Shown: positions 3,753-57,934 of the stretch, in pieces
Numbering within the stretch: the first letter of the stretch is position 1
Layout of the letters: each line of letters starts with the position of its first letter
Origin: Candidatus Hodarchaeota archaeon
Lineage (GTDB): Archaea; Asgardarchaeota; Heimdallarchaeia; Hodarchaeales; Hodarchaeaceae
DNA: 64,000 nucleotides
Direction of reading: 5' to 3'
Assembly: GCA_048887065.1 (NCBI GenBank)
Contig: JBHLKC010000001.1
Location: forward strand, 1,264 to 65,263
Notes under the pieces: generated by a model
Databases searched by the model: none
What the model saw: the letters and a program-made list of their open reading frames with translations, nothing else
Told to the model about the DNA's origin: nothing
Made by a program: the position numbers and the translations under genes

Positions 3753-4893
3753 TATTAGAAAAATGAAAATATCAAAAGAAGGATTCAGAATAATACAAAA
3801 GAATTATATTTTCAAAAATATCGCGCTGATTCAAAAGATAATTTGTGATTCAAACCTATTGCATTTTTCAAATTATCAGACAATTGAGAGGTCAAGAATG
3901 GTAGATCCACAGATTATTAACCAGATTATCGAGATTCTGTTATCGAAAATTGAATCAAAGGATCAAGAACAAGGGCGATTGTTGGTTCACGATGATTTTG
4001 AGAAATACGATTCACGGATTAATCTTTGGGCTATCCGAGAAAACATTAGAGACCTTAAAGAAACAACTATTACGGATTTAGACGACTTTCCTGGTGTGGA
4101 AGTCAAAGTAACTTATGCTCCTCCTATGTTTTTTACAGACGTTTTACAGGGCAAAAATGTTGCTTATTGGCAAGTAGCTACAGTCATTCGATTGTTGAAA
4201 AATTGTGAAATTATTTTTGATCCCAATGGAAAGATGCTTCAATGGGTAGAACAGGCTCCTCACATTGGGTGGAATTCTGAGACAATTGAGCTAAAGCGTC
4301 AAACAACTAGGTTGTTACTGGAAAGAATGAACAATCGAATTCGAGATGATATGATAGCAGATGCCTATATCTGGTTAATTAAAGCAGCAGAAGAAGCTAT
4401 CTGTGTCCCCCTAATGATTCAGAATGCATTCGATGTTGGTACCGCCACACTTATGCTGGATGCAGTAAAAGAATTGGATGAAGAAATCTATGATTTCTTT
4501 ACCAATCTGTTGCAGATTAAAGCAATTTCCCCTGATAAGCTTGAAAAAGCTAGAAAAGAGCTCGAAAATCTTGCAGATCATTTATATAAAAATAATATTA
4601 AAACAGACCGTGAAATGTGGATTCTTGCTGCATTTGTATCTATTAACGAATCTGAAAGACGTTTAAATCAGTGTTTAAAAACTGATAACCCAGAAGAGGC
4701 CAATAAACTTTTTGAAACAGCTATAGGTGAGCTTTGGCAAGCTTATTTCCTTGTTGCTCAAAATCCAAAGTTAGATATAAAATTGGATCCTTGGGTTGTA
4801 AGTTCTTTCTGGCGGTGGTTTGGATTCCCAGAACTAGATGAAAATTGGTTATTAAATCATGCCAAACGAGTAGAAGAGCTAATTAGTACTTAA
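3718..4893 (+). CDS. hypothetical protein (likely true start at 3763 MKISKEG or 3898 MVDPQ)
   Basis: Long ORF with coding-like composition and no recognisable motif. The 5' end overlaps the upstream EamA gene, so an internal start is more likely. Confidence 0.4.
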   Translation: MIYPTISQRLISIRKMKISKEGFRIIQKNYIFKNIALIQKIICDSNLLHFSNYQTIERSRMVDPQIINQIIEILLSKIESKDQEQGRLLVHDDFEKYDSRINLWAIRENIRDLKETTITDLDDFPGVEVKVTYAPPMFFTDVLQGKNVAYWQVATVIRLLKNCEIIFDPNGKMLQWVEQAPHIGWNSETIELKRQTTRLLLERMNNRIRDDMIADAYIWLIKAAEEAICVPLMIQNAFDVGTATLMLDAVKELDEEIYDFFTNLLQIKAISPDKLEKARKELENLADHLYKNNIKTDREMWILAAFVSINESERRLNQCLKTDNPEEANKLFETAIGELWQAYFLVAQNPKLDIKLDPWVVSSFWRWFGFPELDENWLLNHAKRVEELIST

Positions 4894-4971
4894 AAGGCTT
4901 TTTTGGTACTCAACTTTTTAATAAGGTCGTTATAGTCAGAAGAATTTCATAAAGAGAAACCTATCTATTTT

Positions 4972-5898
4972 TCATTCACTTGAATTAAACCATTCCCATG
5001 TTTTTTGTATACCGAATTCTAATTCAGTTTTAGGACTCCAATTCAAGTATTTTTTGGCTTTTATTGATTCTAATGCTATATTTTTAACATCACCAGGTCT
5101 TGGATTACTAAATTTTTTATGTGCGGAAATATTTGTGACTTTCTCAATGATATTTATTAATTCCAAAAGATTAGTCTGTTTTCCTGTTCCTGCGTTAAAT
5201 ATATCTATTACTGATGAATTTATTGCTTTAATACAGATATCTGCGATATCTTTCACATAAATATAGTCCCTAGTATCTGTTCCATCTCCAAAAATTTCCA
5301 AAGGAAGTCTTTTCTTTAGATTTCCTAAAAAAATTGAGATGACACCTGCTTCGCCTAAAGGATCTTGACGTGGCCCATATATGTTTGCTGGCCTGATAAT
5401 CGAATAAGAAAGGTTATGGATTCGATGAAACAGCTGAAGGTACTTCTCACCTACTAGTTTACTAAGGCCATATGGTGAAATAGGTTCCTCTGCTGTAGAT
5501 TCCGATACTGGTAAATGTAGAGGTTCCCCGTAAATTGCTCCTCCAGTAGAAACATAAACAAATCTCTTTACCGAACTAATGCAAGAAGCTTCTAAAAGGT
5601 TAATTATACCTTCAATATTTACAGAAGCGTCATAAGCGGGTTCACGTACAGATCTGTTTACCGATATTTGGGCAGCTAAGTGAAAAACATAATCCACGTC
5701 ATTTATTGCTTTTTCTACAATTTCAGGATTACGAATGTCTCCCTCAATGAGCTTAATGTGTTTTTCAACAACCTTCAGGTTTCTTCGTTTTCCAGTGCTG
5801 AAGTCATCCAAACAGACCACATTATGGTTATTTGCTATAAGTTCTTCAATTAAATGACTACCTAGGAATCCAGCCCCACCAGTAACTAAACAATCCAT
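4972..5898 (-). CDS. NAD-dependent epimerase/dehydratase (UDP-sugar 4-epimerase-like SDR)
   Basis: N-terminal Rossmann motif VTGGAGFLGSHL, catalytic YxxxK (SPYGLSK). 308 aa. Confidence 0.85.
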   Translation of the reverse strand: MDCLVTGGAGFLGSHLIEELIANNHNVVCLDDFSTGKRRNLKVVEKHIKLIEGDIRNPEIVEKAINDVDYVFHLAAQISVNRSVREPAYDASVNIEGIINLLEASCISSVKRFVYVSTGGAIYGEPLHLPVSESTAEEPISPYGLSKLVGEKYLQLFHRIHNLSYSIIRPANIYGPRQDPLGEAGVISIFLGNLKKRLPLEIFGDGTDTRDYIYVKDIADICIKAINSSVIDIFNAGTGKQTNLLELINIIEKVTNISAHKKFSNPRPGDVKNIALESIKAKKYLNWSPKTELEFGIQKTWEWFNSSE

Positions 5899-6089
5899 AA
5901 ATAAAACCCATTTATAATTGTAAATCTAACTCATCTTTGAATGTATGCCACTTAAGAATTTTGCCTACGTGTTGAAGTATAGTTCCAGTACAAAAGACGA
6001 TCAAAAGCTTTAACACTCACTATCGGACGGAATTTTCTGTTTAATAAGAAGAGAATTAATACTATTATAACCGCTTTGGAGATTTATAG

Positions 6090-6884
6090 ATGAAGATTGG
6101 TATAAGTAACGGTTCTGTGGTAACGCTAGAAGAGAAAATTATTAAGATCTACCCTAGTTTAAGAAATGTTTTTCCTATCATTACTGATCGAACTTGTCTT
6201 AACGAGCTTGAATTTAATGAGCTGAATGATCTGCCTCCTTTCGAACTACCAATCAAATCATCGAAGATCATCTGCTTAGCTAAGAATTATGCTGCTCATG
6301 CGAAAGAAATGGGAGTGGAACCAAAAGATCTTCCCGTAAATCCCTCCCTATTCCTAAAACCAGCATCAGCATTAATTGGCCCAAATGAAAATATTATAAT
6401 CCCTCCCCAAACTCAACAGGTTCATCATGAGGTTGAATTAGCTGTAATAATTGGAAAAAAAGGAAAAAATATACCTTTAGAGGAGAGTATGAGCTATATT
6501 TTCGGTTACAGTATATTACTCGATATTACCGCTCGAGATATTCAATCTATTGCTAAGAGAGATGGTCGCCCTTGGTTTGAAGCGAAGGGCTTCGATACTT
6601 TTTCTCCAATAGGCCCCTTAATAGTAACAACCGATGAAATTACAAATCCTCAGAATCTTGATTTAGAATTGAAACTAAATGGAGTAACAAAACAGCGAGG
6701 AAACACAAAAGATATGATCTTTAAAATCGACCAAATAATTAACTATTGTAGCTCAATTGTAACCTTAGAACCTGGTGACATTATAGCTACGGGGACTCCA
6801 GATGGAGTAGGCCCTTTCAAGAAAGGTGATCGAATAGAGGCAACTATTGAGTCGATTGGAACACTTAAGCTGGGAGTTGCCTAG
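6090..6884 (+). CDS. fumarylacetoacetate hydrolase (FAH) family protein
   Basis: 264 aa. C-terminal FAH-fold pattern (EVELAVIIGKKGKNI, GDIIATGTPDGVGP). Confidence 0.8.
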   Translation: MKIGISNGSVVTLEEKIIKIYPSLRNVFPIITDRTCLNELEFNELNDLPPFELPIKSSKIICLAKNYAAHAKEMGVEPKDLPVNPSLFLKPASALIGPNENIIIPPQTQQVHHEVELAVIIGKKGKNIPLEESMSYIFGYSILLDITARDIQSIAKRDGRPWFEAKGFDTFSPIGPLIVTTDEITNPQNLDLELKLNGVTKQRGNTKDMIFKIDQIINYCSSIVTLEPGDIIATGTPDGVGPFKKGDRIEATIESIGTLKLGVA

Positions 6885-37075: not shown

Positions 37076-37924
37076 ATGCTTTTTCAAGAACCAATAGTAA
37101 CTTTCGCTGATGTTATTATCGCTCTGATATTAACTAGTTTTGCTGGATTTGCTACGACAATTGGTGCTGCAACTGCTTTTATAACAAAAAAACCGTCTAT
37201 CCGTGTTCTTGCAATAGGATTAGGGTTTTCTGGTGGTGTAATGCTAGCAGTTTCGTTCGTTGAACTCCTTCCAAGTGCTCTTGATGAGTTTGCTAGTACT
37301 GGGTTGTCAGAAGGAGAATCATTTTTCTGGGGTAATTTTTGGTTCTTTGTTGGAATTTTCTTCATTTTTGCCATTGATGTTCTGATTCCCCACATTTACA
37401 AGGAAGAAGATAGTGGACACCAGCATTCTCATGAATTATCATATGATAGTGCTGATAAACAAATTTCCAAGGCCAATCTGCGAAAATTGGGATTGTTGAC
37501 AGCCTTAGGTATAGCTGTGCATAATTTTCCTGAAGGATTAGTTACATTCACAAGTAGTTTAAAATCTGTGGAGTTAGGTGTTGTATTGGCTATTGCTGTT
37601 GGTTTACACAACATACCAGAAGGACTTTCTGTTAGCATCCCTATTGTAACAGCTACAGGTGATAAATGGTATGCATTTCGTCTTGGACTTCTTTCTGGAA
37701 TTGCAGAACCTGTAGGTGCTTTACTAGCAGCTATAATTTTGTACCCATTTTTATCATCTAGCATTATTGGAGCTTCATTAGCCTTTGTCGCTGGTATAAT
37801 GGTTTTTATTTCATTTGATGAATTATTACCAGCTGCCAAATCAGCAGATGATTCCCATCTAGTCACTATAGGGGTTATCGGTGGAATGATTGTTATGGTT
37901 TTTACTCTATGGATGTTTACTTAA
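37076..37924 (+). CDS. ZIP-family divalent metal (Zn/Fe) transporter
   Basis: Two HNxPEG signature helices (VHNFPEGLV, LHNIPEGLSV), His-rich loop HQHSHE. 282 aa. Confidence 0.85.
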   Translation: MLFQEPIVTFADVIIALILTSFAGFATTIGAATAFITKKPSIRVLAIGLGFSGGVMLAVSFVELLPSALDEFASTGLSEGESFFWGNFWFFVGIFFIFAIDVLIPHIYKEEDSGHQHSHELSYDSADKQISKANLRKLGLLTALGIAVHNFPEGLVTFTSSLKSVELGVVLAIAVGLHNIPEGLSVSIPIVTATGDKWYAFRLGLLSGIAEPVGALLAAIILYPFLSSSIIGASLAFVAGIMVFISFDELLPAAKSADDSHLVTIGVIGGMIVMVFTLWMFT

Positions 37925-41678: not shown

Positions 41679-42362
41679 TTATGCCATTTCTACCTTTTTT
41701 ATCCGAAAACGGCAATAACTATCGCCATTTCCAATGCATTTTTCCTTAAAAACCGACTGCCCTATTAATTCATGCATCATTGTCTCATCAACCTTGCAAA
41801 TCATAGGATTCACTTTTGCTACTCCGTGCATTAGACAGTTATAGTTTGTTAATGCGTATGATGTCTCATCTTCATCTAGCTTAGGAAAAGTACCATGTTC
41901 TTCGAAAATTCCAACCAGCTTATTCAATTTAAATTCTAAAGAATCGACTTTGTCTGATAATTGCCTTTTCATTTGATCACTTATATTTAAGGCTAATTTT
42001 TTACCAATATTTGAGAAAAGCATCTGTAGTTTATCTTCTCCATACATAACCTTTATTTCATCAAGTACGGTTATACAAAATTCCATGTAAGTTTTAGGAA
42101 AAAGCTCTATCCCCTTTTCGGAAATTGAATAAACCATAGCAGGTCGTCCAGTCTTCCCTTTCTTCTCTTTCTTAAAAACAAAGCCTTCTTTTTCTAAGGT
42201 TACAAGGTAGTTCCATACAACATTAGTACTAAGATCTAATGAACTAGCAATGGCTTTCACAGTAAAATATGTGTTCTCATCGGATGTTGAACCTTGGTGC
42301 ATCAAAAAGCGTAGGATCCTTTCACGGGCTGGAAAAGATAAGTTTCTAAAATTATTTACCAA
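41679..42362 (-). CDS. winged-helix regulator with C-terminal V4R-like Cys domain (MsvR-like redox-sensing regulator)
   Basis: N-terminal wHTH (RERILRFLMHQG...). C-terminal NYNCLMHGV..NPMICKVDE...EKCIGNGDSYCRFRI resembles the V4R consensus C...G...CxF. Paralog of 47484-48173. Confidence 0.5.
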   Translation of the reverse strand: MVNNFRNLSFPARERILRFLMHQGSTSDENTYFTVKAIASSLDLSTNVVWNYLVTLEKEGFVFKKEKKGKTGRPAMVYSISEKGIELFPKTYMEFCITVLDEIKVMYGEDKLQMLFSNIGKKLALNISDQMKRQLSDKVDSLEFKLNKLVGIFEEHGTFPKLDEDETSYALTNYNCLMHGVAKVNPMICKVDETMMHELIGQSVFKEKCIGNGDSYCRFRIKKVEMA

Positions 42363-43624: not shown

Positions 43625-44395
43625 TTGATTGTACCAGAAATTGTCGTGATATTCTATGGAGTAGTAGCAGGTGTTGGTACACTTTCAGGTATCTACATAA
43701 TGAACTCAAAGCAAGAATGGGCAATAAAACATTCTCACTATGTTAATTCATTTGCTGCTGGATTATTATTAGCATTAGTTTTTTTTCATCTTATTCCAGA
43801 AGCAGTAGAATTATTAGAAGTAATAGAAAGCTCAGAGCTAGCTTTTATTGCGGTTTTCATCGGATTCTTCTTCTTCTATCTATTGGAGAACTTTATTGTA
43901 CTACATTCAGGGAGTGAAATCCATTACCACTTAGAAGAATCCCCTGAACCCCATGTACATACCTCTGAAACAAGAATGGGGTTAATGGCGTTCTCTGGGT
44001 TAGCATTCCATTCTTTGCTAGATGGCGTCATAATTGGAGTAGGATTTGAAATTAGCTCTGAAATTGGTTTCCTTGCTGCTATGGCTGTAATTCTGCACGA
44101 AATCCCAGAAGGAGTAACAAGCTTTGCCCTCATTAATCGTACTATTCCCGAAAGAGCAAAGTTAATGGCTATTATTGTAGCTCTTGCCACTCCTTTTGGT
44201 GCGATGTTTTCTTTGCTGTTTGTTGAAGGCTTAACTGAATCGGTAATTGGAATTCTTTTAGCTTTAGCTGCAGGTTCATTTATTTATGTAGCAGCTTCAG
44301 ATCTAATACCTGAAACTCATTTAAGTAGTAATTTTCAAAATTTATTTTTCTTTTTACTCGGAGCAATCGTGATTTATGCAATTTCATTAATCTAG
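43625..44395 (+). CDS. ZIP-family divalent metal transporter
   Basis: HSLLDGVIIGVGF and LHEIPEGVTSFAL signature helices, His-rich loop HYHLEESPEPHVH. 256 aa. Confidence 0.8.
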   Translation: MIVPEIVVIFYGVVAGVGTLSGIYIMNSKQEWAIKHSHYVNSFAAGLLLALVFFHLIPEAVELLEVIESSELAFIAVFIGFFFFYLLENFIVLHSGSEIHYHLEESPEPHVHTSETRMGLMAFSGLAFHSLLDGVIIGVGFEISSEIGFLAAMAVILHEIPEGVTSFALINRTIPERAKLMAIIVALATPFGAMFSLLFVEGLTESVIGILLALAAGSFIYVAASDLIPETHLSSNFQNLFFFLLGAIVIYAISLI

Positions 44396-45349: not shown

Positions 45350-46063
45350 TCACTGAATTGGAATCTTTTCTTTACCAGTTACCATTCCTCTAAGTCGTTG
45401 ACGATTTTCAGGGATTATAGCAAAATAAAAATGCACCATCGTAGAGACAAGGAAATATACAAACATAAGGAAGTGAAGGAAACGAATGTTAAGATTCAAT
45501 GCTTGCACCGGTGCAACAAGTAATGCCAATACAGCAAGTATCCCTGTAGATCCAGGTGCTAATTGCTCTGCAAGAGCAATTCCTGTTACACCCATTAGAA
45601 ATATTACAACTAGGTTCATTAAAGCTAGTAGTTTTTGAGCAGGATGATATTTCATAATATATTTCTTTTCTTCGAGGATATAGAAGTCATAATGGGGATA
45701 CTTTGAATCAGGTAAAATTCTAAACGCACATAATGCAATGATAATCAAGTCTAGAATCTCTCTTGGTGTAGGAATAATCTCAAGGAGTTTTCTGTCTTTT
45801 ATTAAGATCGCAATATAAAAAATTAAATCCCAACCACCTACAAAAATTCCAAGAATATAATGGAGAGTACGAGTGAACCCATATGTAGTTCCAAAGAAAT
45901 AGACTTTAATAGCGATTTCAAAACCTGTTAATATAAATAGAACCATAGATCCAACGTGAACCCAATGATGAAGTCGGTGGCTCTTTGTATATCTTTCTAC
46001 AGAAAGAAACTCGAAAGTTTTTGATTCGTCTGCTTTTGAGAGTACTTTTTTTGTTTTAAGCAT
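45350..46063 (-). CDS. membrane di-heme b-type cytochrome (Ni/Fe-hydrogenase/formate-dehydrogenase cytochrome b subunit-like)
   Basis: 237 aa with 4-5 TM helices. Conserved R..HRLHHWVHV on TM1 and further His on later helices, as in the HyaC/FdnI family. Confidence 0.5.
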   Translation of the reverse strand: MLKTKKVLSKADESKTFEFLSVERYTKSHRLHHWVHVGSMVLFILTGFEIAIKVYFFGTTYGFTRTLHYILGIFVGGWDLIFYIAILIKDRKLLEIIPTPREILDLIIIALCAFRILPDSKYPHYDFYILEEKKYIMKYHPAQKLLALMNLVVIFLMGVTGIALAEQLAPGSTGILAVLALLVAPVQALNLNIRFLHFLMFVYFLVSTMVHFYFAIIPENRQRLRGMVTGKEKIPIQ

Positions 46064-46099
46064 AATTGATCATCTACATAAGTAAAATTTGTCTAAAAA

Positions 46100-47011
46100 T
46101 TATTCTTCAGAAGAAAATGTTTCATTCCAACGCTCTCTAAATGTTGGGCTCTTCCAACGATTACTAGTGCTTAATTTTGTTGGTATATCGCTAGAAATTA
46201 GTCGGTAATCGTGTTTTATTGGATTTATGATTACTCTACGAATGAAGTGCAGAACAATAAACCCAAAACCACTTAACATTGTTAAGCTAAGCACTTGGAG
46301 CTTAAGTTGATCATAATTGATTACTGTTGGGACAGGAATATTTCCAGGGGCAATCCCAGCTTGAGGAGTGGAAAATGATGTAAGTATATAGTAAAAAGTA
46401 TGTGAACCAAAATGATCACTTTTTGAAGCAAATTGAATCATTGTTATGCTTCCATTCTGATACACAATATCATAACCATTAGAATCAACACTTGTTGTAT
46501 CTAATAATCTCACAACTTCAATCTCTACAAGATCGCCTGTGAAAATACCTTCAGCTAAAAGATCATTATTAGTGTCTTCACTAGGCATCCGCGTTCCAAT
46601 AAAGAATACATCCTTCGCTTCTACAGTTTTAGCATTCTCATCAATATAAATAGCCCAACCGTCATGCTGGTTCATCATACATGCAGAGGTATCTGCGTCA
46701 AACTCGATTGATATCCATTCATTGCTTGCTGAGCTAACAAGTAAAGCATACAGATGAGTTTCGTTATTAGCAAATTTAACGTAACCCTTAGGACCGTATT
46801 CTGATATATTCTGATAAGATTCAATAGATGACCAAAATGGATCAATTTGACCATCATTCAGGTTCAATGTGGTGTTTGTTTTACTGGATACGAATCCTGG
46901 AGTTTCATCTGCAACCTTGCTCGGATAACCTAATGTTGATCCTACAAAGAAGCCTGCTCCAATAAAAAAGGCTATCATCAACAAAGATAGGATTATTTTT
47001 CTCATTCCCAT
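46100..47011 (-). CDS. extracytoplasmic DOMON/EB_dh-like (putative heme-binding) domain protein with N- and C-terminal TM anchors
   Basis: 303 aa with signal-anchor and C-terminal TM. Central domain (DPFWSSIESY...THLYALLVSSASNEWISIEFDAD) resembles ethylbenzene-dehydrogenase-gamma/DOMON-type domains. Has N-glycosylation sequons. Lies 36 nt upstream of the cyt b gene on the same strand. Confidence 0.35.
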   Translation of the reverse strand: MGMRKIILSLLMIAFFIGAGFFVGSTLGYPSKVADETPGFVSSKTNTTLNLNDGQIDPFWSSIESYQNISEYGPKGYVKFANNETHLYALLVSSASNEWISIEFDADTSACMMNQHDGWAIYIDENAKTVEAKDVFFIGTRMPSEDTNNDLLAEGIFTGDLVEIEVVRLLDTTSVDSNGYDIVYQNGSITMIQFASKSDHFGSHTFYYILTSFSTPQAGIAPGNIPVPTVINYDQLKLQVLSLTMLSGFGFIVLHFIRRVIINPIKHDYRLISSDIPTKLSTSNRWKSPTFRERWNETFSSEE

Positions 47012-47483
47012 TTTAATTTCACTTCTACTATGTCCAACACAATATTCAGACTTAATACAGTAATTAATAGATTGTATTCTCCCTTGGGGATACCGTCTGA
47101 ATCGGAAAAATAATTTTGACCAATAGAGAACAATTACTCACAGTTTTTACGTGTTAGTTGCAGATATTCTAGCTGTTCCTTGGATTGTAATGTGGAGAAT
47201 AATAATTATTTTTCCGATTTTAAATTCTATAAAATAATATTTTAATTTTTCCATTTAAAAATTTGCAAACTGTATTTATTTTGTACTTAACTAGTGTAAG
47301 AAGTAAAAGAAAAACAGAAAAGAGGTTAAAATTTAATTATAGATTTTTTACAAAGACAGTAGGCATTGATTATATCGAAAATTTTGCAGCTCTTCCTCTA
47401 TAATAAGTGAAAAGAATTTGAAGCCTTTATCAGTGGTAATTTTGGGAAGGATATCTTACATTGAAGTCCTTTTTTAGGGGTTA

Positions 47484-48173
47484 TTAACTAGCTTTCACTT
47501 TTTGAATTCTATAGAGACAACATTCATCGCCGTCTCTAAGACATTTCTCTTTTGTACACTTTTGACCTGCTAATTCCGCTATCATTGTCTCGTCAACTTT
47601 ACAAACCAATGGATCATGTCTTACAACACCATAAACAAGACAGTTATAATTCAAGAGCGAGAATGATGTTTCGTCTTCTATTAATTCTGGAAACTTCCCA
47701 TAATCTTGGAAAACTTCAGCCACTTTTTCTAGCCTTTGTTTAACTGGTAGAGAATCGAAGGATTCTGTTCTATCCATATTAGATTCGATAATATCTTTTA
47801 TTTCTGAGGCGATTCTTTTCCCTACCATTTCGAGCATGGTAACTGTCTCTGCAATACCATGACGACTCTTAATTAAATCGACTAGATAGATAGATAAATC
47901 TCTATAAACCTTAGGAAAAAATTCAAAAGCATTGTCTGTAAGTGTGTAAGTCATAGCAGGCCGACCTGTTGAACCCTTCAGTTCTGTTCGTACCACAAGT
48001 CCATCTTTTTCAAGAACAACCATATATTGTCGGGCTGCATTTGTACTAAGGCCAAGTTCAGTTGCAATCTGTTTTATGGTACAACAATCACCATCTGGTG
48101 ATCGATTAAGCAACAAGTACCGTAAGATCTTTTCACGTGTCGTAATAAATGGTTCTTGTTCTGCTTGGATCAT
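47484..48173 (-). CDS. winged-helix regulator with C-terminal V4R-like Cys domain (MsvR-like), paralog of 41679-42362
   Basis: Shared blocks RPAMTYTLTD, EDETSFSLLNYNCLVYGVVRHDPLVCKVDETMIAELAGQ, EKCLRDGDECCLYRI. Confidence 0.5.
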   Translation of the reverse strand: MIQAEQEPFITTREKILRYLLLNRSPDGDCCTIKQIATELGLSTNAARQYMVVLEKDGLVVRTELKGSTGRPAMTYTLTDNAFEFFPKVYRDLSIYLVDLIKSRHGIAETVTMLEMVGKRIASEIKDIIESNMDRTESFDSLPVKQRLEKVAEVFQDYGKFPELIEDETSFSLLNYNCLVYGVVRHDPLVCKVDETMIAELAGQKCTKEKCLRDGDECCLYRIQKVKAS

Positions 48174-49192
48174 TTTTTTTCTCCTATCTTTATGAAAAGG
48201 GTTTTGTTTGTATAATCATAATGGGAACAGTGATTGATTTCAAAAAAAATGAGAGGCGCTATTGAAATATTGGTTAAACAATGTTTCCGCTCATAATTAT
48301 ATAATTTGATTTTAATGAGAGGAAATATCCAAGGCATGCGAATGAACTCGCGACTTTATTATTATGATTATCCGTGTAAATAAAGAATAAATACATATAT
48401 AATAATTTTCCTAAAAAAAAGCATAAAATCAAAAAAGTTGACAATGAATACATAATTTAACTACTTTCTGAATTTAACTAACTTTTATCTACTGAAAATA
48501 ATAAATATTGAGAAATAAGAAACCTAAACGTTTTTGCTCTTGTTTCTTTAAAACATTTGAAGAGGATTTTACTCGTTGAAATTCAATCCTTTTTGAAGGC
48601 CATATTCGATTTAAATAGTAGAAAATGATTTTCACTAGCGATAAAAGCGAATTATGTCTCAATCATGTCCGATCTTATTGCTAGCAGATTAACCACAAGA
48701 AAGTTATTATCTCTTGATGGAAAAATAATAATTAGAAAAGTAAATTTCAATTACATCCGAATTCATAGAGGCTTAATACTATAACAATTAACTATTGTAA
48801 ATTAGTTTAACTAGATTCGAAAAACGGATTATATATTATCTCTTTTTGTAAAATAAAGTTCGCATCCGTTTTTTAGGCTATTATTATCAAAATGGTTTTT
48901 ATTGGATTTTTTCCAGCTCTATAAGTCTCTTCTGTATTAATGCAGATTTTCTGAAGTTTTTATAATAGATACATTAAAAAAATAAAAAACTATAGTTATA
49001 TTTCATACATTTAATAATACCATAATGTTTTTTTATCTGAAATTATACCTATACTTGAGTATAGTTTCTAATACTATATTTATCGCAAAGTTTGCGAAAT
49101 TCGAAATAACATACGATATGTCGGTTAAAGTACCGATAGTTAACTTCTTACCAAGAAGTAGCGAAGAAAATCTCATATACGGCGGTATATTG

Positions 49193-51726: not shown

Positions 51727-52416
51727 TTATTCTGTTATCAATTCATCGATAAACAAGAGTATCAATACTAAGACAATGATTGCATGAAGGAAAAGAAGAA
51801 ATGCATTGATTACAACTGAAGTTGGATCATAATAGAATGTTAAATTTCTTGTAGCCTCTGCAGCAATAATAATGGATGGGAGAATTAATGGGAAAAACAG
51901 AATCGGAATGGCTAAAGTTTTAGATTTAGCATAAATTGTCAAGAAAGACACAATACAACCAGCAACAACTAGATCGATTGTCCCAATTGCCAAAACAAAA
52001 CAAAAGAGTAACAAGTCTCCTTGAACATTAATTTCTAAGAAGATTATAGCCATAGTAAATGCGAATACCTCGACAACTGCCAAAATAACTCCTAAATACA
52101 AGAGTTTTGCCAAAAAAATTGCTTGAGGTTTAATCGACAACGAAAGGAGTGAATATATTGAATTTTTCCTCATTTCCCGTGAAAAGACCGAATTGAGACC
52201 TAGCATGACAGTAAAGGCAATTATAAACCACATTGATGCTGTAGAAATTGTATACTTTGCTTCAAGAGATATATTCTCAATGAGATTAAAGAGAGTAGAA
52301 AATATAAGTACAGAGGCTAAAGAAAAAAGGCCCATTGAAAAAAGAGTCTCTTTTGTCCTAAATTCTAGAATTAAATCCTTTTTTGCTATATTAAAGGTGT
52401 CAAGAATAATTGACAT
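51727..52416 (-). CDS. ABC-2-type permease, putative heme exporter protein B (CcmB-like)
   Basis: 229 aa with 6 TM helices, immediately downstream of the ABC ATPase in an operon with ccmC. The CcmB assignment is contextual. Confidence 0.5.
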   Translation of the reverse strand: MSIILDTFNIAKKDLILEFRTKETLFSMGLFSLASVLIFSTLFNLIENISLEAKYTISTASMWFIIAFTVMLGLNSVFSREMRKNSIYSLLSLSIKPQAIFLAKLLYLGVILAVVEVFAFTMAIIFLEINVQGDLLLFCFVLAIGTIDLVVAGCIVSFLTIYAKSKTLAIPILFFPLILPSIIIAAEATRNLTFYYDPTSVVINAFLLFLHAIIVLVLILLFIDELITE

Positions 52417-52439: not shown

Positions 52440-53201
52440 TTAATTCTTGTTTTTCAAGAAAAAATCATATTCAGAAGGAATGAGTACTTTCGTGATCCCA
52501 CCATTTTCGAGATAAAACACTCTACTGCACAAGCGAGCTATTGTACGAAAATTATGTGAACAAATGATAACTGTTCGATCTGCCTGTCGTTTCGTAATGA
52601 GCTGATTCAAGAATTTTTTATTCTCTACATCTAAACCACTAAAAGGTTCATCAAGGAGAAGCAATTTAGGCAAAGTAGGTAATAAAACCCTTAAAATTTC
52701 CAGTTTTTTAGCCATGCCAGTAGAGAGTTCATGTGCGGGTCTGTCAATATATAATTTGAGATTATACTGTTTTACTGCTTCATTAATAATCTCATTAGTA
52801 TTTTTTGTACGTTTATTCATTTTGAGATAATATTCAAGATTTTCACGTCCAGTAAGATCCTCATAAAAGAATGAATGGCTTAATAACACTCCAATATCCT
52901 TTTTCAAGAGATGATATTTTTCCTTAGCTTCTGTACCAAAAATTTTGATGCTACCTGAAGAAGGGGTAACCAGAAGGGATATAATTTTTAGAAGTGTGCT
53001 CTTTCCAGCTCCATTATGTCCAATAAATCCTATTGTTTCTCCTTCTTCTATTTTCAGATGAATTTTCTTTAAAGCAGTCGTAAAACCATAAATTTTGCTA
53101 ACATTTGTCAATTCAACAGCTGGCAGATTGTTCTGCATACCAACGCTCATCTCAAAGCACCATTTAACCTCAATGCTCCCTGTATATGGAAAAAAGGTCA
53201 T
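52440..53201 (-). CDS. ABC transporter ATP-binding protein, putative CcmA
   Basis: Walker A GHNGAGKST, signature LSTGMAKK, Walker B LLLDEPFSGLD. Confidence 0.8.
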   Translation of the reverse strand: MTFFPYTGSIEVKWCFEMSVGMQNNLPAVELTNVSKIYGFTTALKKIHLKIEEGETIGFIGHNGAGKSTLLKIISLLVTPSSGSIKIFGTEAKEKYHLLKKDIGVLLSHSFFYEDLTGRENLEYYLKMNKRTKNTNEIINEAVKQYNLKLYIDRPAHELSTGMAKKLEILRVLLPTLPKLLLLDEPFSGLDVENKKFLNQLITKRQADRTVIICSHNFRTIARLCSRVFYLENGGITKVLIPSEYDFFLKNKN

Positions 53202-53425: not shown

Positions 53426-54154
53426 TCAATCTTCCTCCATTCTTTGTTTTCTTAATTTTTTTAAAGCAAAATCCATTTTATTGAGTTTATACGCTTGATA
53501 GATCAGAATTAAGGCCAATATTCCAATAAATAAAAAGTTTAACATTAAGAACATGCCTGCCCCAGTGCTATAACTTGTTTGTTGAGGATTAGGATGTAAG
53601 ACTCCAACTATAACATATGATAGGGGTACAGAGACGAATGCTACAATTCCAAATACTGCTGAAATCGTTGCCTTTCTTTCGTGATTTTCGACTTCTATCA
53701 TATCTCGAAAGATTAGAAGGCCAACATATATGAGCCACATAACTAAGGTTATTGTCTCACGATCATTCCAATCCCAAAAAGTACCCCATTCAACTTTTGC
53801 CCAAATCATTCCAACAATGATCGTTATTGCTCCAAGTACAACACCGACCTGAGCACTTGAAACGAGAATAAGATCTAATCTCAAATCTTTTTTCCATAAT
53901 AAGAAAAGAATTCCGCAAATAAGAGCAATTCCAAAGCAGAAGTATGTTGAAAAAGCGAATGGAACCATATAGAATATTGGTTTACCACTTACTATAAAAC
54001 CCTGAAAAGGTTTTAATGAGATATAGACCATATAATAATTAAAAGTGATAAAACCCAATCCAATAATGAAAAATATCTGAGTCTTGTATGGGATTTTTCG
54101 CCAAATTTTATCCATGATAAAATCCGTATAAGGCTTAAGAATTTCCGGACTCAA
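53426..54154 (-). CDS. ccmC: heme exporter protein C (CcmC) with WWD domain
   Basis: Tryptophan-rich WWD signature VEWGTFWDWNDRE, conserved His in flanking loops, 6 TM helices. 242 aa. Confidence 0.75.
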   Translation of the reverse strand: MSPEILKPYTDFIMDKIWRKIPYKTQIFFIIGLGFITFNYYMVYISLKPFQGFIVSGKPIFYMVPFAFSTYFCFGIALICGILFLLWKKDLRLDLILVSSAQVGVVLGAITIIVGMIWAKVEWGTFWDWNDRETITLVMWLIYVGLLIFRDMIEVENHERKATISAVFGIVAFVSVPLSYVIVGVLHPNPQQTSYSTGAGMFLMLNFLFIGILALILIYQAYKLNKMDFALKKLRKQRMEED

Positions 54155-54345: not shown

Positions 54346-56172
54346 TTGCATGTTTTGAAACATTTATTGTATTATATTTCACAACGAAAATCATTAGCAT
54401 TTGGTGTTTTAATATTCATATTTGTTGCCCAAATTGCTGAATTAACCATACCTCTACTTGTTGGTTCAGTTATTGATCAAATTCTGCTATCTTTAACCGA
54501 AGATCGTTTCCAAATCTCTATAATCCTCTCTGGAGTCTTGTTGATTCTTATTGCAAGCATTATTCGTGGAATTACCTACTTTTTTGCGAGATGGATTGGT
54601 TACGTTCAAGGAGAAGGGATAATTTATGATATAAGACAGGATTTGTTTGAAAAATATGAAACATCCAGTATTTCATTTTTCGATAAACATCATACTGGCG
54701 ACCTTATGGCTCGTGCAACAACAGATTTAGAACCAATTTCGGAATTTTTGGTGTGGGGGGAACGAATACTAGTTCAGGCAGGTTTAACTTATATAGGGAT
54801 ATATTTAGTCTTGTTATTAGTTAATATTCAGTTATTTCTTCTTATAGCAATTGTTACCCCCTTGTTATTCATTCTTGCGTATTTTGTGTCAACAAAACTA
54901 GGACCTCTCTTCTTTGATATCCGAACTCAGTATGGTAAGTTAACCACCGTAATTCAAGAAAATATCTCAGGAACACAGATTGTTAAAGCATTTAATGCAG
55001 AAGATAGGGAGAAGAAAAAATTCGATCAAGAGAATCTAGGGTACATGGCCTTACGAGCTTACGCATTTAAAATTAGATCGATTTTTTTACCAATGTTCAT
55101 GTTTCTTGTCCATCTATTAGTAACCATTCTTATTTTTTCGGGAGGATACTTAGTTATCCAAAACGAGATTAGTCCTGGGTCTTTAATTACTCTATTCATG
55201 TACTTCACGATGCTTAGTATGCCCACTAGATTCTTAGCTTTTGCTTTAATAATGTATCAACGAGTTTCTGCGGCTGGTGATAGAGTATTTACATTAATTG
55301 AAACTCCAGCTGATTTAACAGAGCCAATAGATGCGAAAATCTTCCCTACAGACATAACTCCTAGTATTATTTTCGAAAAAGTCTCATTTAAGTACAACAA
55401 AAGGAAAGCTTTGTCAAAAATTTCATTGATAATTAAACCTGGTGAAAAAGTAGCTATCCTTGGCCCAACAGGATCAGGAAAGAGCACTTTAATTTCACTT
55501 ATTCCTAGATTTTATGATCCGACTGAAGGTCGTATTAGTGTAGAAGCTAGTCCTAATGAAGTATATAATCTAAAAGAGTTAAACCTCAAGAACTGGCGTG
55601 AAAGAATTGGTTATGTACATCAAGAACCATTTTTATTTGGCCGAACTATCGCTGAGAATATTATGTTCGGTATTCCCCAGGCTACATCAGAACAAGTTAA
55701 TGAAGTAATAAAAATCGCTCAATTAGATGATTTTATTGGGGAATTACCAGAGGGAGTGAACACCCTTGTTGGTGAGAGGGGAGTAACTCTGTCAGGAGGT
55801 CAGAAACAACGTGTTGCTATAGCCCGGATGTTATTGAGAAAAAAAAGAATTATGATTCTTGATGATGCTACTTCAGCATTGGATATCTCGACCGAAACTA
55901 AATTTCAAGAAGCATTTGAAAATTTTCTCGCAAAAGATTCTCGTAAACATACCCTCATTCTGATTACTCAAAGATTAAGTACTTTGAAAATAGTTGATAG
56001 GATTATTATAATGAACCAAGGTCAAATTATAGAACAGGGCTCCCATGAAGAGTTATTAGAAAAGGGTTTGATTTATCCTCTTCTTTGGAAAACTCAGGAA
56101 GCGGGGATGGTTGATATAAAACTAGCCTTGGAAAAGATTGTTCAGGAGAGTGATTTGGCTGAGCCAAACTGA
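54346..56172 (+). CDS. ABC exporter, fused permease + ATPase (ABCB/MsbA type), subunit 1 of a heterodimer
   Basis: 6-TM domain, Walker A GPTGSGKST, signature LSGGQKQR, Walker B ILDDATSALD. Confidence 0.85.
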   Translation: MHVLKHLLYYISQRKSLAFGVLIFIFVAQIAELTIPLLVGSVIDQILLSLTEDRFQISIILSGVLLILIASIIRGITYFFARWIGYVQGEGIIYDIRQDLFEKYETSSISFFDKHHTGDLMARATTDLEPISEFLVWGERILVQAGLTYIGIYLVLLLVNIQLFLLIAIVTPLLFILAYFVSTKLGPLFFDIRTQYGKLTTVIQENISGTQIVKAFNAEDREKKKFDQENLGYMALRAYAFKIRSIFLPMFMFLVHLLVTILIFSGGYLVIQNEISPGSLITLFMYFTMLSMPTRFLAFALIMYQRVSAAGDRVFTLIETPADLTEPIDAKIFPTDITPSIIFEKVSFKYNKRKALSKISLIIKPGEKVAILGPTGSGKSTLISLIPRFYDPTEGRISVEASPNEVYNLKELNLKNWRERIGYVHQEPFLFGRTIAENIMFGIPQATSEQVNEVIKIAQLDDFIGELPEGVNTLVGERGVTLSGGQKQRVAIARMLLRKKRIMILDDATSALDISTETKFQEAFENFLAKDSRKHTLILITQRLSTLKIVDRIIIMNQGQIIEQGSHEELLEKGLIYPLLWKTQEAGMVDIKLALEKIVQESDLAEPN

Positions 56173-57934
56173 AGACCAAAGAGATCGCTTGAGTCGTGAG
56201 TATTCAGATTGGGAATTATTTAAAAGATTAATTGGTTATACTCGACCACATTGGTTTGTATTTGTGACTGCTATGGGTGCAATGTTTCTATCTACTATTT
56301 TCTCAGTTATTCAACCATTAATACTTCTAAGAGCTATTGATGATTATATACTTCCTAAAGATGTTGAAGGTTTGGGTCTTGTAGCAATTCAATATTTTAT
56401 GGTTGCACTAATCGCGTTTCTATTAAGTGTGATTGCTACCTATTTTACTACCATAACAGGTCTGAAGATTATTACGCAGATTCGTCAAGAAACATTTTAC
56501 AAACTTCAAACCTTAAGTATGGATTATTATGACAAAGAAGCAACAGGTAGAATTATCTCTAGGGTTACTAATGATGTGGAAAGGTTACTTAACTTGCTTT
56601 CAACAGGGATCATCGACGCTATAATCAATAGTATATTTCTTGGTGTTTTGTTTATCGTTTTACTCTATTTAGATGTACGCCTAACTATCACTGTTTTGAT
56701 CTTCTTTCCAATTTTAGCAGTTTTTATAATTTATTTCCGAATCAAAGCACGTTCAGCATGGCAACAAACAAGGAGAACTCTAGCAAAAGTGACTGGATAT
56801 TATCAAGAAGCTATTTCAGGGATTGAAGTCTCGAAAGCATTTGTAGCAGAGGATTTTATGACTAACGAATTTGAAATCCTTAATCTAGAGAATTATCAAG
56901 CCCGGATGAAAGCACTTATCTTGTTTGCAGTAATGTTTCCCATCATGGATATGATTCTAGCCATAGGAACTGCCATAGTTCTTACTGTTGGCGGCTATTC
57001 GATTGGAACCCAAACAATGTCTATTGGAACACTAGTGGCTTTTATTTCATATCTAGGAAGAATATCTCAACCGATAATGATTCTATCAAATTTCTATAAC
57101 AATTTATTAAGTGCAATGGCTGCAACTGAAAGAATCTTTGATATCCTAGACAAAACTCCTGGGGTTATTCCTCTTGATGAGCAATCCTTGCCTGAAGTTG
57201 AAGGGACTATTGAATTTCAAAACGTTACATTTGCTTATGATCACGAATCTGATCCTGTCCTCAAGGATTTTCAGTTAACAATTCCTGCTAATGGGACATA
57301 TGCCCTTGTTGGCCATACAGGTGCTGGAAAAACAACAATAACAAACCTACTTTGCCGTTTTTATGATTTTAATCACGGAAAAATTCTGGTTGATGGTAAT
57401 GATATACGAAATCTTAATCTTCAAAACTATCGTAATTGGATTTCAATCATTCCTCAAGATTCATTTCTCTTTTCTGGATCAATAAGAGAAAATCTCCTGT
57501 ATGGAAAACCTGATGCATCTGTTCAGGAAATCGAACAGGCCCTTCTCAGGGTTGGTGCTTTCGATTTCGTGATGAGTAAAGGATTAGATGCTGAAGTTGG
57601 TGAACGAGGGACGAGACTATCGATGGGGGAACGCCAATTACTCTGTTTTGCAAGAGCAATTATTTCAAATCCAAAGATTTTATTACTAGATGAAGCAACA
57701 TCCTCAGTTGATGCACATACTGAATTAGTAATTCAACAAAGTTTACATCATATTATACGAAATCGGACTGCAATAATAATAGCCCATCGACTTAGCACGG
57801 TTCGAGCTGTAGATAGAATAATTGTGTTAAAGGAAGGGAAAATTGTTGAACAAGGCTCTTTTCAAGAATTACTAGAAATTAAGGGCATATTTGCTGATTT
57901 ATATGATAAACAATTTGCTGGCCAAGAGATATAA
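56138..57934 (+). CDS. ABC exporter, fused permease + ATPase, subunit 2
   Basis: Walker A GHTGAGKTT, signature LSMGERQ, Walker B LLLDEATSSVD. 35-nt overlap with subunit 1. Confidence 0.85.
   Translation: MFRRVIWLSQTEDQRDRLSREYSDWELFKRLIGYTRPHWFVFVTAMGAMFLSTIFSVIQPLILLRAIDDYILPKDVEGLGLVAIQYFMVALIAFLLSVIATYFTTITGLKIITQIRQETFYKLQTLSMDYYDKEATGRIISRVTNDVERLLNLLSTGIIDAIINSIFLGVLFIVLLYLDVRLTITVLIFFPILAVFIIYFRIKARSAWQQTRRTLAKVTGYYQEAISGIEVSKAFVAEDFMTNEFEILNLENYQARMKALILFAVMFPIMDMILAIGTAIVLTVGGYSIGTQTMSIGTLVAFISYLGRISQPIMILSNFYNNLLSAMAATERIFDILDKTPGVIPLDEQSLPEVEGTIEFQNVTFAYDHESDPVLKDFQLTIPANGTYALVGHTGAGKTTITNLLCRFYDFNHGKILVDGNDIRNLNLQNYRNWISIIPQDSFLFSGSIRENLLYGKPDASVQEIEQALLRVGAFDFVMSKGLDAEVGERGTRLSMGERQLLCFARAIISNPKILLLDEATSSVDAHTELVIQQSLHHIIRNRTAIIIAHRLSTVRAVDRIIVLKEGKIVEQGSFQELLEIKGIFADLYDKQFAGQEI

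Follow-up and report, generated by a model that had tools for sequence, protein, structure and literature searches.

The closest described relatives of the system reported here are the membrane cytochromes b FdnI (Protein Data Bank, PDB, entry 1KQF) and HyaC (4GD3), beside which an outer redox subunit, FdnH or HyaA, is held on a single C-terminal membrane helix, an arrangement known from those structures. On the eukaryotic side, electrons in CYBDOM proteins such as CRR/HYP1 and SDR2/FRRS1 travel through two haems in the membrane before reaching an outside haem in the DOMON domain (PMC10784552). Both superfamilies are thus known, and the logic of coupling a DOMON domain to a cytochrome b is established in eukaryotes. 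Here, we analyzed a 64,000-nucleotide stretch of DNA from a Candidatus Hodarchaeota archaeon (contig JBHLKC010000001.1; hereafter the window; G+C content 33%), in which a gene for a DOMON-fold protein, currently annotated as 'hypothetical protein', is followed by a gene for a di-haem cytochrome b. We consider it fairly probable that the two proteins form a quinone-coupled membrane conduit that carries electrons across the cytoplasmic membrane over three b-type haems. As far as we found, what is undescribed is the archaeal split system, in which a membrane-anchored DOMON subunit carries a conserved cytoplasmic tail; no published description of the cassette was found in the literature on DOMON with PF01292, Asgard, archaea or extracellular electron transfer.

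The two genes form a conserved pair across Asgard archaea

A first-pass annotation of the window, made from its letters alone, had described two co-directional genes 36 nt apart, and both open reading frames (ORFs) and the gap were found as described, on the reverse strand (Table 1). Sequence searches returned numerous homologues of both proteins, with E-values as low as 1e-190, and for this reason we regard the ORFs as real genes rather than chance ORFs; they probably constitute one transcription unit. An exhaustive profile search over 1.84 billion representative proteins yielded 84 relatives of the DOMON protein, and the corresponding search with the cytochrome b profile yielded 92. All named matches to either protein came from Asgard archaea, and judged by these searches both families appear to be restricted to this group. 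The gene order is equally constant: at each of the 19 distinct loci that could be evaluated, the DOMON gene directly precedes the cytochrome b gene in the same orientation, and the spacing varies between a stop–start overlap and about 104 nt. These loci span Hod-, Heimdall-, Thor-, Odin- and Kariarchaeal genomes; among them are two closed Heimdallarchaeota chromosomes, in addition to metagenome-assembled genomes of Thorarchaea, Odinarchaea and Kariarchaeaceae.

A further link between the two proteins came from the C-terminus of the DOMON protein. Its long membrane helix (residues 233–262) carries an invariant histidine, H255, near the cytoplasmic face and is followed by a conserved cytoplasmic tail, RRVIxSPIKH(267)DYR...PTF(K/R)ERWxETFS. 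All family members with this PIKH tail are encoded beside a PF01292 gene, including a long form from Thorarchaea (P0109). Two tail-less relatives instead precede other polytopic membrane proteins that lack a PF01292 match, and a third, P0104, has no membrane-protein neighbour. The co-occurrence of tail and PF01292 partner is the best evidence at hand for a physical complex, and we infer that the DOMON protein and the cytochrome b would assemble into one.

The long relatives of the DOMON protein vary at the opposite end. The Thorarchaeal form P0109 (553 aa) comprises an N-terminal Cys-x(n)-Cys-His domain, an Ig-like domain, the DOMON domain, the membrane helix and the PIKH tail, followed by a separate PF01292 gene. 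Fusions of cytochrome b and DOMON, which would have served as Rosetta-stone evidence for the partnership, were considered for the longer relatives (372–558 aa) and rejected, as 0 of 10 Pfam-scanned proteins contained a cytochrome b domain; the six that were read (P0109, P0117, P0116, P0125, P0138 and P0122, from Thorarchaea and other Asgard archaea; for example locus L008, 2301–3962) instead carry N-terminal extracellular domains of the Ig-like Big_7 type. Ahead of Big_7, the motif Cys-x(1,2 or 4)-Cys-His is conserved in these six; its variable Cys spacing is atypical for haem c attachment and may point to a metal site instead. Among the tail-less paralogues, P0138 (L010, 5001–7226) and P0174 (L011, 1062–2578) precede polytopic membrane proteins of 215 and 201 aa, respectively, which have two motifs in common, H-x4-H-F-(P/H)-I near the N-terminus and AGAGG..YG(K/H)SIL near the C-terminus, and match no Pfam or NCBIfam family. 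The two may represent a different family of membrane partners.

The cytochrome b retains the haem-ligand pattern of FdnI

The cytochrome b matches PF01292 (Ni_hydr_CYTB) over the entire profile (positions 1–179 of 179), with 45 bits as compared to a gathering score of 30.1. Its scores against the equivalog families of FdnI (TIGR01583, 25.3 versus a cut-off of 115.85 bits) and HyaC (TIGR02125, 47.9 versus 121.5 bits) fall far short, and we therefore place it in the superfamily as an orthologue of neither. No fdnGH- or hyaAB-like genes were seen in the neighbourhood of the pair among the window ORFs scanned for families (about 25.3–61.7 kb), and a Pfam scan gave no match of the window cytochrome b to PF03188, the family of eukaryotic b561 proteins. 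An AlphaFold2 (AF2) model built from 25 homologues, with a predicted local distance difference test (pLDDT) score of 83, shows four long helices (27–52, 61–89, 141–168 and 193–216) plus two short helices and a beta-hairpin, in keeping with the four to five transmembrane (TM) segments predicted in the first-pass annotation. When this model was compared to the PDB with Foldseek, a probability of at least 0.9 was reached only by FdnI (1kqf_C, E 8e-4, TM-scores 0.58/0.63) and HyaC (6g94, 4gd3). The b561 structure 4o6y, with an E-value of about 3 and a TM-score of 0.21, did not match structurally.

Five histidines are invariant among the 25 sequences: H33 on TM1, H68 on TM2, H140, and the TM4 pair H197/H211, spaced 14 residues apart. 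Aligning the family profile to E. coli FdnI with hhalign (Prob 94%, E 1.2e-7) matched H33, H68, H197 and H211 one-to-one with FdnI H18, H57, H155 and H169. In FdnI (structure 1KQF), H18/H169 ligate the cytoplasmic-side haem and H57/H155 the outer-side haem. The corresponding ligand pairs predicted for the Asgard protein are H33/H211 on the cytoplasmic side (TM1/TM4) and H68/H197 on the outer side (TM2/TM4), placing the histidines on opposing TM helices at the two membrane faces. The proposed HyaC/FdnI-type di-haem cytochrome b is thus borne out by family score, fold and ligand alignment. As for the RxxHxxHW..H pattern on which that proposal drew, its histidine ligands stood, and the exact motif has to be corrected to RxxHW (R30-L-H-H33-W34, at the N-terminus). 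The distribution of lysine plus arginine residues, with 6 in the N-terminus, 8 in the loop 90–140 and 5 in the C-terminus, whereas the remaining two loops contain 1 and 0, sets the topology as N-in, C-in.

Quinone coupling is suggested by the motif KYHPAQK (138–144), which ends the cytoplasmic loop 98–144, a highly conserved segment of about 50 residues that contains the beta-hairpin. The motif, which harbors the fifth invariant histidine, H140, aligns with KYNAGQK of FdnI at the cytoplasmic start of TM3, a stretch that lines the menaquinone/2-heptyl-4-hydroxyquinoline N-oxide (HQNO) site of that enzyme. The alignment is a hint that a cytoplasm-side quinone site has been kept. The Asgard protein accordingly shares with FdnI and HyaC the family, the four-helix fold, the four ligand histidines and KY(N/H)xxQK at the start of TM3. 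It differs in the 50-residue conserved cytoplasmic loop, in the conserved cytoplasmic tail of its DOMON partner and in that no catalytic molybdenum or NiFe subunit is encoded near the pair.

The upstream gene encodes an outward-facing DOMON domain with candidate haem ligands

The AF2 model of the DOMON protein consists of an N-terminal helix, a ten-strand beta domain (39–211) and the long C-terminal helix. With a threshold of E ≤ 1e-3, Foldseek gave 15 matches in the PDB, every one of them a DOMON-superfamily structure; the set comprises CBM9 modules, EbdC (2ivf_C, 3.4e-6), NxrC (7b04, 7e-6), the cytochrome domains of cellobiose and pyranose dehydrogenases (1D7B of cellobiose dehydrogenase, 2.5e-5) and dopamine beta-hydroxylase. 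At the sequence level, PF03351 (DOMON) was matched by 7 of 22 homologues with a best E-value of 1.2e-5; these are sub-threshold hits, the scores shown for related members lying below the gathering cut-off of 32.7 bits. A direct hhalign comparison of the family profile with one canonical PF03351 domain, taken from P0104, gave a weak match (Prob 0.5%, E 0.12). PF09459 (EB_dh) was absent from the hits at E ≤ 1 for the window protein and 21 homologues, and the scanned window ORFs contained no molybdoenzyme genes near the pair. Of the DOMON/EB_dh-like domain originally suggested, the DOMON part is hence upheld by fold and family hits, whereas the EB_dh part finds no counterpart in sequence, the likeness to EbdC being one of fold only.

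The positions of a conserved methionine and histidine pointed to haem binding. M112 is present in 92 of 95 family members, H200 in 79, H204 in 41 and C111 in 48, and the Met–His spacing across the family is 88–92 residues. M112 sits in the loop after the strand W-I-S-I-E-F and the histidine right behind F-A-S; the canonical PF03351 domains of Asgard proteins are arranged alike. For comparison, the axial ligands of Arabidopsis CRR, Met89 and His180, have a comparable spacing (PMC10784552). By conservation and spacing, the DOMON domain likely holds a Met/His-ligated haem b, with M112 and either H200 or H204 as candidate ligands. The same Met/His pattern on a DOMON-type beta-sandwich is found in the cytochrome of cellobiose dehydrogenase, which differs in that it is part of a secreted, soluble flavocytochrome and lacks a partner in the membrane. 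EbdC and NxrC likewise have a DOMON-like haem b fold and an extracytoplasmic role in electron transfer, but the Asgard protein lacks a PF09459 match and is anchored in the membrane with a cytochrome b instead of joining molybdenum bis-pyranopterin guanine dinucleotide (Mo-bisPGD) alpha/beta subunits. Moreover, its second ligand candidate is a histidine, whereas the haem of EbdC is ligated by Met/Lys. Where FdnH is an Fe-S protein, the Asgard pair has a DOMON beta-sandwich, probably with haem b, on the outer side.

The ectodomain is acidic, with 27 Asp and Glu residues versus 9 Lys and Arg, and contains four N-x-S/T sequons, and a K/R-rich segment lies behind the C-terminal helix. From these features we conclude that the DOMON domain faces outward, as had been proposed for an extracytoplasmic beta-rich domain. 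The protein had also been considered doubly TM-anchored. The C-terminal helix agrees with this view; the N-terminal hydrophobic segment (about residues 6–27), which is poorly conserved, could equally be a signal peptide, and may be one of uncleaved appearance rather than a second anchor.

A proposed three-haem conduit between the quinone pool and the outer face

Taken together, the two subunits would pass single electrons over three b haems. In the cytochrome b, one haem would lie near the cytoplasmic face (H33 and H211) and another near the outer face (H68 and H197), and electrons would probably be exchanged with the quinone pool at a cytoplasm-side site resembling that of FdnI. The DOMON beta-sandwich would hold the third haem b on the outside, likely with Met112 and one of His200 and His204 as ligands, a mode of ligation shared with cellobiose dehydrogenase and CYBDOM proteins. 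Its C-terminal helix probably packs on the cytochrome b in the manner of the FdnH and HyaA anchor helices on FdnI and HyaC. Redox proteins of the cell surface or substrates outside the cell could then give electrons to the outer haem or take them from it. A surface multihaem cytochrome c encoded nearby would be the likeliest partner in Heimdallarchaeia; for this or any other specific partner, our confidence is lower than for the conduit itself. Flow could run either way. If quinol is oxidized on the cytoplasmic side and electrons move outward, the membrane potential would assist the transfer, for which the thiosulfate reductase subunit PhsC is a precedent. Inward transfer to quinone would constitute a charge-separating half-loop that builds potential, similar to FdnI in formate dehydrogenase N (Fdh-N).

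This arrangement parallels that of the eukaryotic CYBDOM proteins in several respects: an outward DOMON domain with conserved Met and His, a two-haem membrane cytochrome b and three haems in line, and homologues of the Asgard DOMON protein match PF03351 too. The two systems differ in that the Asgard conduit would be built from two polypeptides and CYBDOM proteins are single-chain fusions, that the membrane part is a four-helix PF01292 protein rather than a PF03188 b561, and that the donor is probably quinol as opposed to cytosolic ascorbate. The pair can thus be viewed as a prokaryotic, split counterpart to the eukaryotic DOMON/cytochrome b561 ferric reductases.

Several observations weigh against the three-haem conduit. 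For the 303-residue DOMON protein itself, comparison with Pfam, NCBIfam and PDB sequences gave no significant match (no Pfam hit at E ≤ 1). Likewise, phmmer and a 22-sequence profile run against all PDB sequences returned nothing meaningful, fold comparison alone having worked, and the model on which this comparison was based is of moderate confidence (pLDDT 69.9). The choice of ligands was made from conservation and spacing, not from a residue-level structural alignment, with H200 and H204 being indistinguishable. Quinone coupling leans on a single aligned motif, compared with the quinone-site residues of FdnI. Furthermore, the multihaem cytochrome, regulators, M50-like protein and Ccm genes that surround the pair in Heimdallarchaeia (see below) do not flank it in the Thor, Odin and Kari lineages. 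Finally, the best Foldseek hits of the DOMON model are not cytochromes but sugar-binding CBM9 modules (7nwo and 7nwn, E 1.2e-6).

The last point raises the possibility that the DOMON domain is haem-free, being a CBM9-like sugar-binding or a structural surface module, and that the cytochrome b works alone, for example as a superoxide:quinone oxidoreductase like E. coli CybB, which illustrates that PF01292 proteins can do without a partner. Three highly conserved tryptophans of the domain, W60, W99 and W119, would also suit such a module. However, a methionine and a histidine are kept at the presumptive ligand positions of haem-binding DOMON domains, the Pfam hits are to PF03351 and no CBM9-like family appears at E ≤ 1. 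In addition, the strict adjacency of the genes and the co-variation of the tail with the PF01292 partner point to a complex. We therefore hold a haem-free DOMON domain to be very unlikely and retain the three-haem conduit as the favored reading.

If correct, the conduit would bear on an actively debated subject, the energy metabolism of Asgard archaea and notably of Hodarchaeales and Heimdallarchaeia, which have been proposed as the nearest relatives of eukaryotes. A gap in electron transport is noted in two Asgard preprints, one of which reports no discernible electron route to the oxidases in these archaea and considers that uncharacterized proteins might fill such gaps (10.1101/2025.02.26.640444). 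A strictly conserved, Asgard-specific pair that would wire a surface haem to a quinone-type cytochrome b is a testable candidate for the missing route, and also for electron exchange with syntrophic partners. The supplements of the Hodarchaeales culture preprint contain nothing on expression of the pair. A broader proposal, which we regard as doubtful, is that the pair serves as an Asgard-wide link from the quinone pool to the cell surface for extracellular electron exchange, either out to surface cytochromes, minerals and syntrophs or as charge-separating uptake, and that its DOMON domain shares ancestry with eukaryotic CYBDOM and AIR12.

The pair is embedded in a haem and cytochrome island in Heimdallarchaeia

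The surroundings of the pair in the window (Table 1) were compared with those in other genomes, neighbours being counted over 13 Heimdallarchaeia-type loci, window included.

Table 1. Coordinates of the gene pair and its neighbours in the window.
Feature	Coordinates	Strand	Remarks
Second ZIP-family metal transporter	37076..37924	+	
Second SufR/MetOD1-like regulator, paralogue of 47484–48173	41679..42362	-	paralogues match at E about 1e-58
ZIP-family metal transporter	43625..44395	+	about 1 kb from the pair
M50 (site-2 protease)-like polytopic membrane protein, 231 aa	44466..45161	-	invariant HExxH (H55 E56 H59), N146-x-F-P...D160-G161
Di-haem cytochrome b gene, FdnI/HyaC type (PF01292)	45350..46063	-	237 aa, ATG start
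Spacer between DOMON and cytochrome b genes	46064..46099	-	36 nt
DOMON-fold protein gene	46100..47011	-	303 aa, ATG start
SufR-like winged-helix regulator with Cys-rich MetOD1 output domain	47484..48173	-	PF18546 and HTH families; adjoins the pair on its upstream side
Surface multihaem cytochrome c, about 439 aa	49193..50512	+	ORF begins at 49025; 49193 is the likely true start
CcmB	51727..52416	-	PF03379
CcmA	52440..53201	-	ABC_tran
CcmC	53426..54154	-	Cytochrom_C_asm; TIGR01191 ccmC under cut-off

The first-pass annotation had placed a surface multihaem cytochrome 2 kb away, and its gene indeed starts at about that distance from the DOMON gene. The protein has an N-terminal anchor or signal, six CxxCH motifs, one Cx4CH, CxxCM motifs and a C-terminal PGF...KKRR membrane segment. 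It matches the families Cytochrome_C554, Paired_CXXCH and C552, with weak, below-cut-off hits to Heimdall-CTERM and Loki-CTERM, and its best PDB sequence match is 6i5b_A (E 2.9e-13), followed by octahaem nitrite reductases. A homologue within 10 kb of the pair was present in 7 of the 13 loci (window, L014, L015, L016, L017, L021 and L027); none was found near the pair in Thor, Odin and Kari genomes. In the window protein and those of L015, L016, L017 and L027, we observed an invariant C-L-H-C-M-(S/T)-G-Q-G where 6i5b_A has C-L-K-C-H. A second motif, C-G-H-C-M, occurs in 3 of 5 homologues, besides C-x4-C-H. Judged by the motif, CxxCM in place of CxxCH would be an unusual mode of haem c attachment or ligation.

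Genes of cytochrome c and haem biogenesis recur in the same region. The CcmB/A/C trio adjoins the pair in 6 of the 13 loci (window, L018, L019, L020, L022 and L024), CcmF lies nearby in three (L016, L017 and L027), CcmE in one (L024) and haem O synthase in two (L014 and L021). This clustering would fit an accessory role in biogenesis, in which the pair would deliver the electrons that reduce haem iron or apocytochrome thiols on the outer face during Ccm-dependent maturation. Yet the Odin and Kari pair loci have no Ccm gene in the flanks sampled, CcmF of System I has its own haem b for that task, and Ccm genes would cluster with the pair just as readily if its partner were simply the multihaem cytochrome. 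We thus judge a biogenesis function to be quite improbable. A closed Heimdallarchaeota genome (L014, region 4018–6627; CP070695.1; see also L021) has the haem O synthase gene 2.5 kb from the pair, with a score of 209.8 bits versus the TIGR01473 cut-off of 210.3. Immediately ahead of this gene is one for a 538-aa polytopic membrane protein with many conserved histidines and no family match.

Regulators are further constant neighbours in Heimdallarchaeia. A SufR-like/MetOD1 protein is encoded next to the pair in 13 of 13 loci, often in two copies, with the second copy flanking the pair in L013, L014, L017, L021 and L024. The copy immediately upstream of the pair in the window matches TIGR02702 (SufR) with an E-value of 9e-16, under the family cut-off. 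Together with a ZIP transporter gene close to the pair in the window, these Cys-rich regulators would be in line with an assimilatory metal reductase, which would act on Fe(III) or Cu(II) chelates outside the cell so that the metal can be taken up, like the CYBDOM proteins CRR/HYP1 and SDR2, and would serve neither energy metabolism nor a multihaem cytochrome. The three-haem logic is common to CYBDOM ferric reductases (PMC10784552; PMC10784544), and the pair occurs in lineages without a nearby multihaem cytochrome. Against this, the ZIP gene stands beside the pair in no other locus, neither of the two ZIP genes of the window having a homologue near the pair elsewhere, the SufR match of the regulators is below the family cut-off, and conserved iron-uptake genes are missing nearby. 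A dedicated metal reductase therefore seems unlikely to us, and we return to the quinone-coupled conduit in considering its possible partners.

Neither the multihaem cytochrome nor the regulators and Ccm genes can be obligatory partners of the conduit, since the flanks of the pair in Thor, Odin and Kari genomes lack them all, and, as the neighbours differ by lineage, the two-gene pair itself is the conserved core. In a Thorarchaeal locus (L002, 1–1973, reverse strand; JBHLRO010000004.1), a gene for a surface protein with a canonical DOMON domain (PF03351, 54 bits) and five fn3 domains is divergently adjacent to the pair. This protein could serve as an outer electron-transfer partner, the multihaem cytochrome being missing from that lineage. 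Outer partners are likely lineage-specific, yet repeatedly surface redox proteins.

Downstream of the cytochrome b gene, at a distance of 188 nt in the window, lies the gene for the M50-like membrane protein, which may be transcribed separately from the pair. A homologue occupies the position directly downstream in all 12 evaluable Heimdallarchaeia-type loci. Pfam support for the family is weak (Peptidase_M50B in 3 of 12 members, best E 0.013, and weak M50 hits too), and its profile gave only spurious membrane-helix matches when compared to PDB sequences. Based on the conserved motifs listed in Table 1, the protein could process a membrane-anchored protein of the cluster.

In the promoter region of the DOMON gene, we noted a perfect 16-nt inverted repeat, AATCGGAAAAATAATT / AATTATTTTTCCGATT, at 47100–47115 and 47204–47219, its arms being 88 nt apart. 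The 14-nt core, TCGGAAAAATAATT, has two exact copies in the 64-kb window, both at this site, and in 17 other loci no comparable repeat was found in the 500 nt that precede the DOMON gene. An operator shared by the DOMON and multihaem cytochrome genes was rejected, given that the repeat occurs only at the DOMON promoter and is not conserved. As it is confined to one promoter region and lacks conservation, co-regulation is unproven; the repeat may nevertheless be a candidate operator for the adjacent SufR-like regulator.

No cox genes were present among the scanned window ORFs or in the flanks of the pair, and a direct link of this DOMON paralogue to Cox is accordingly unsupported. In L010, a SCO1/redoxin-like gene is divergently adjacent to that of the tail-less paralogue P0138, which recalls DOMON proteins reported beside cox genes. 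Near the cytochrome cluster of the window, two genes for fused ABC exporters (ABC_membrane plus ABC_tran) are arranged in a CydDC-like layout on the forward strand at 54346–57934.

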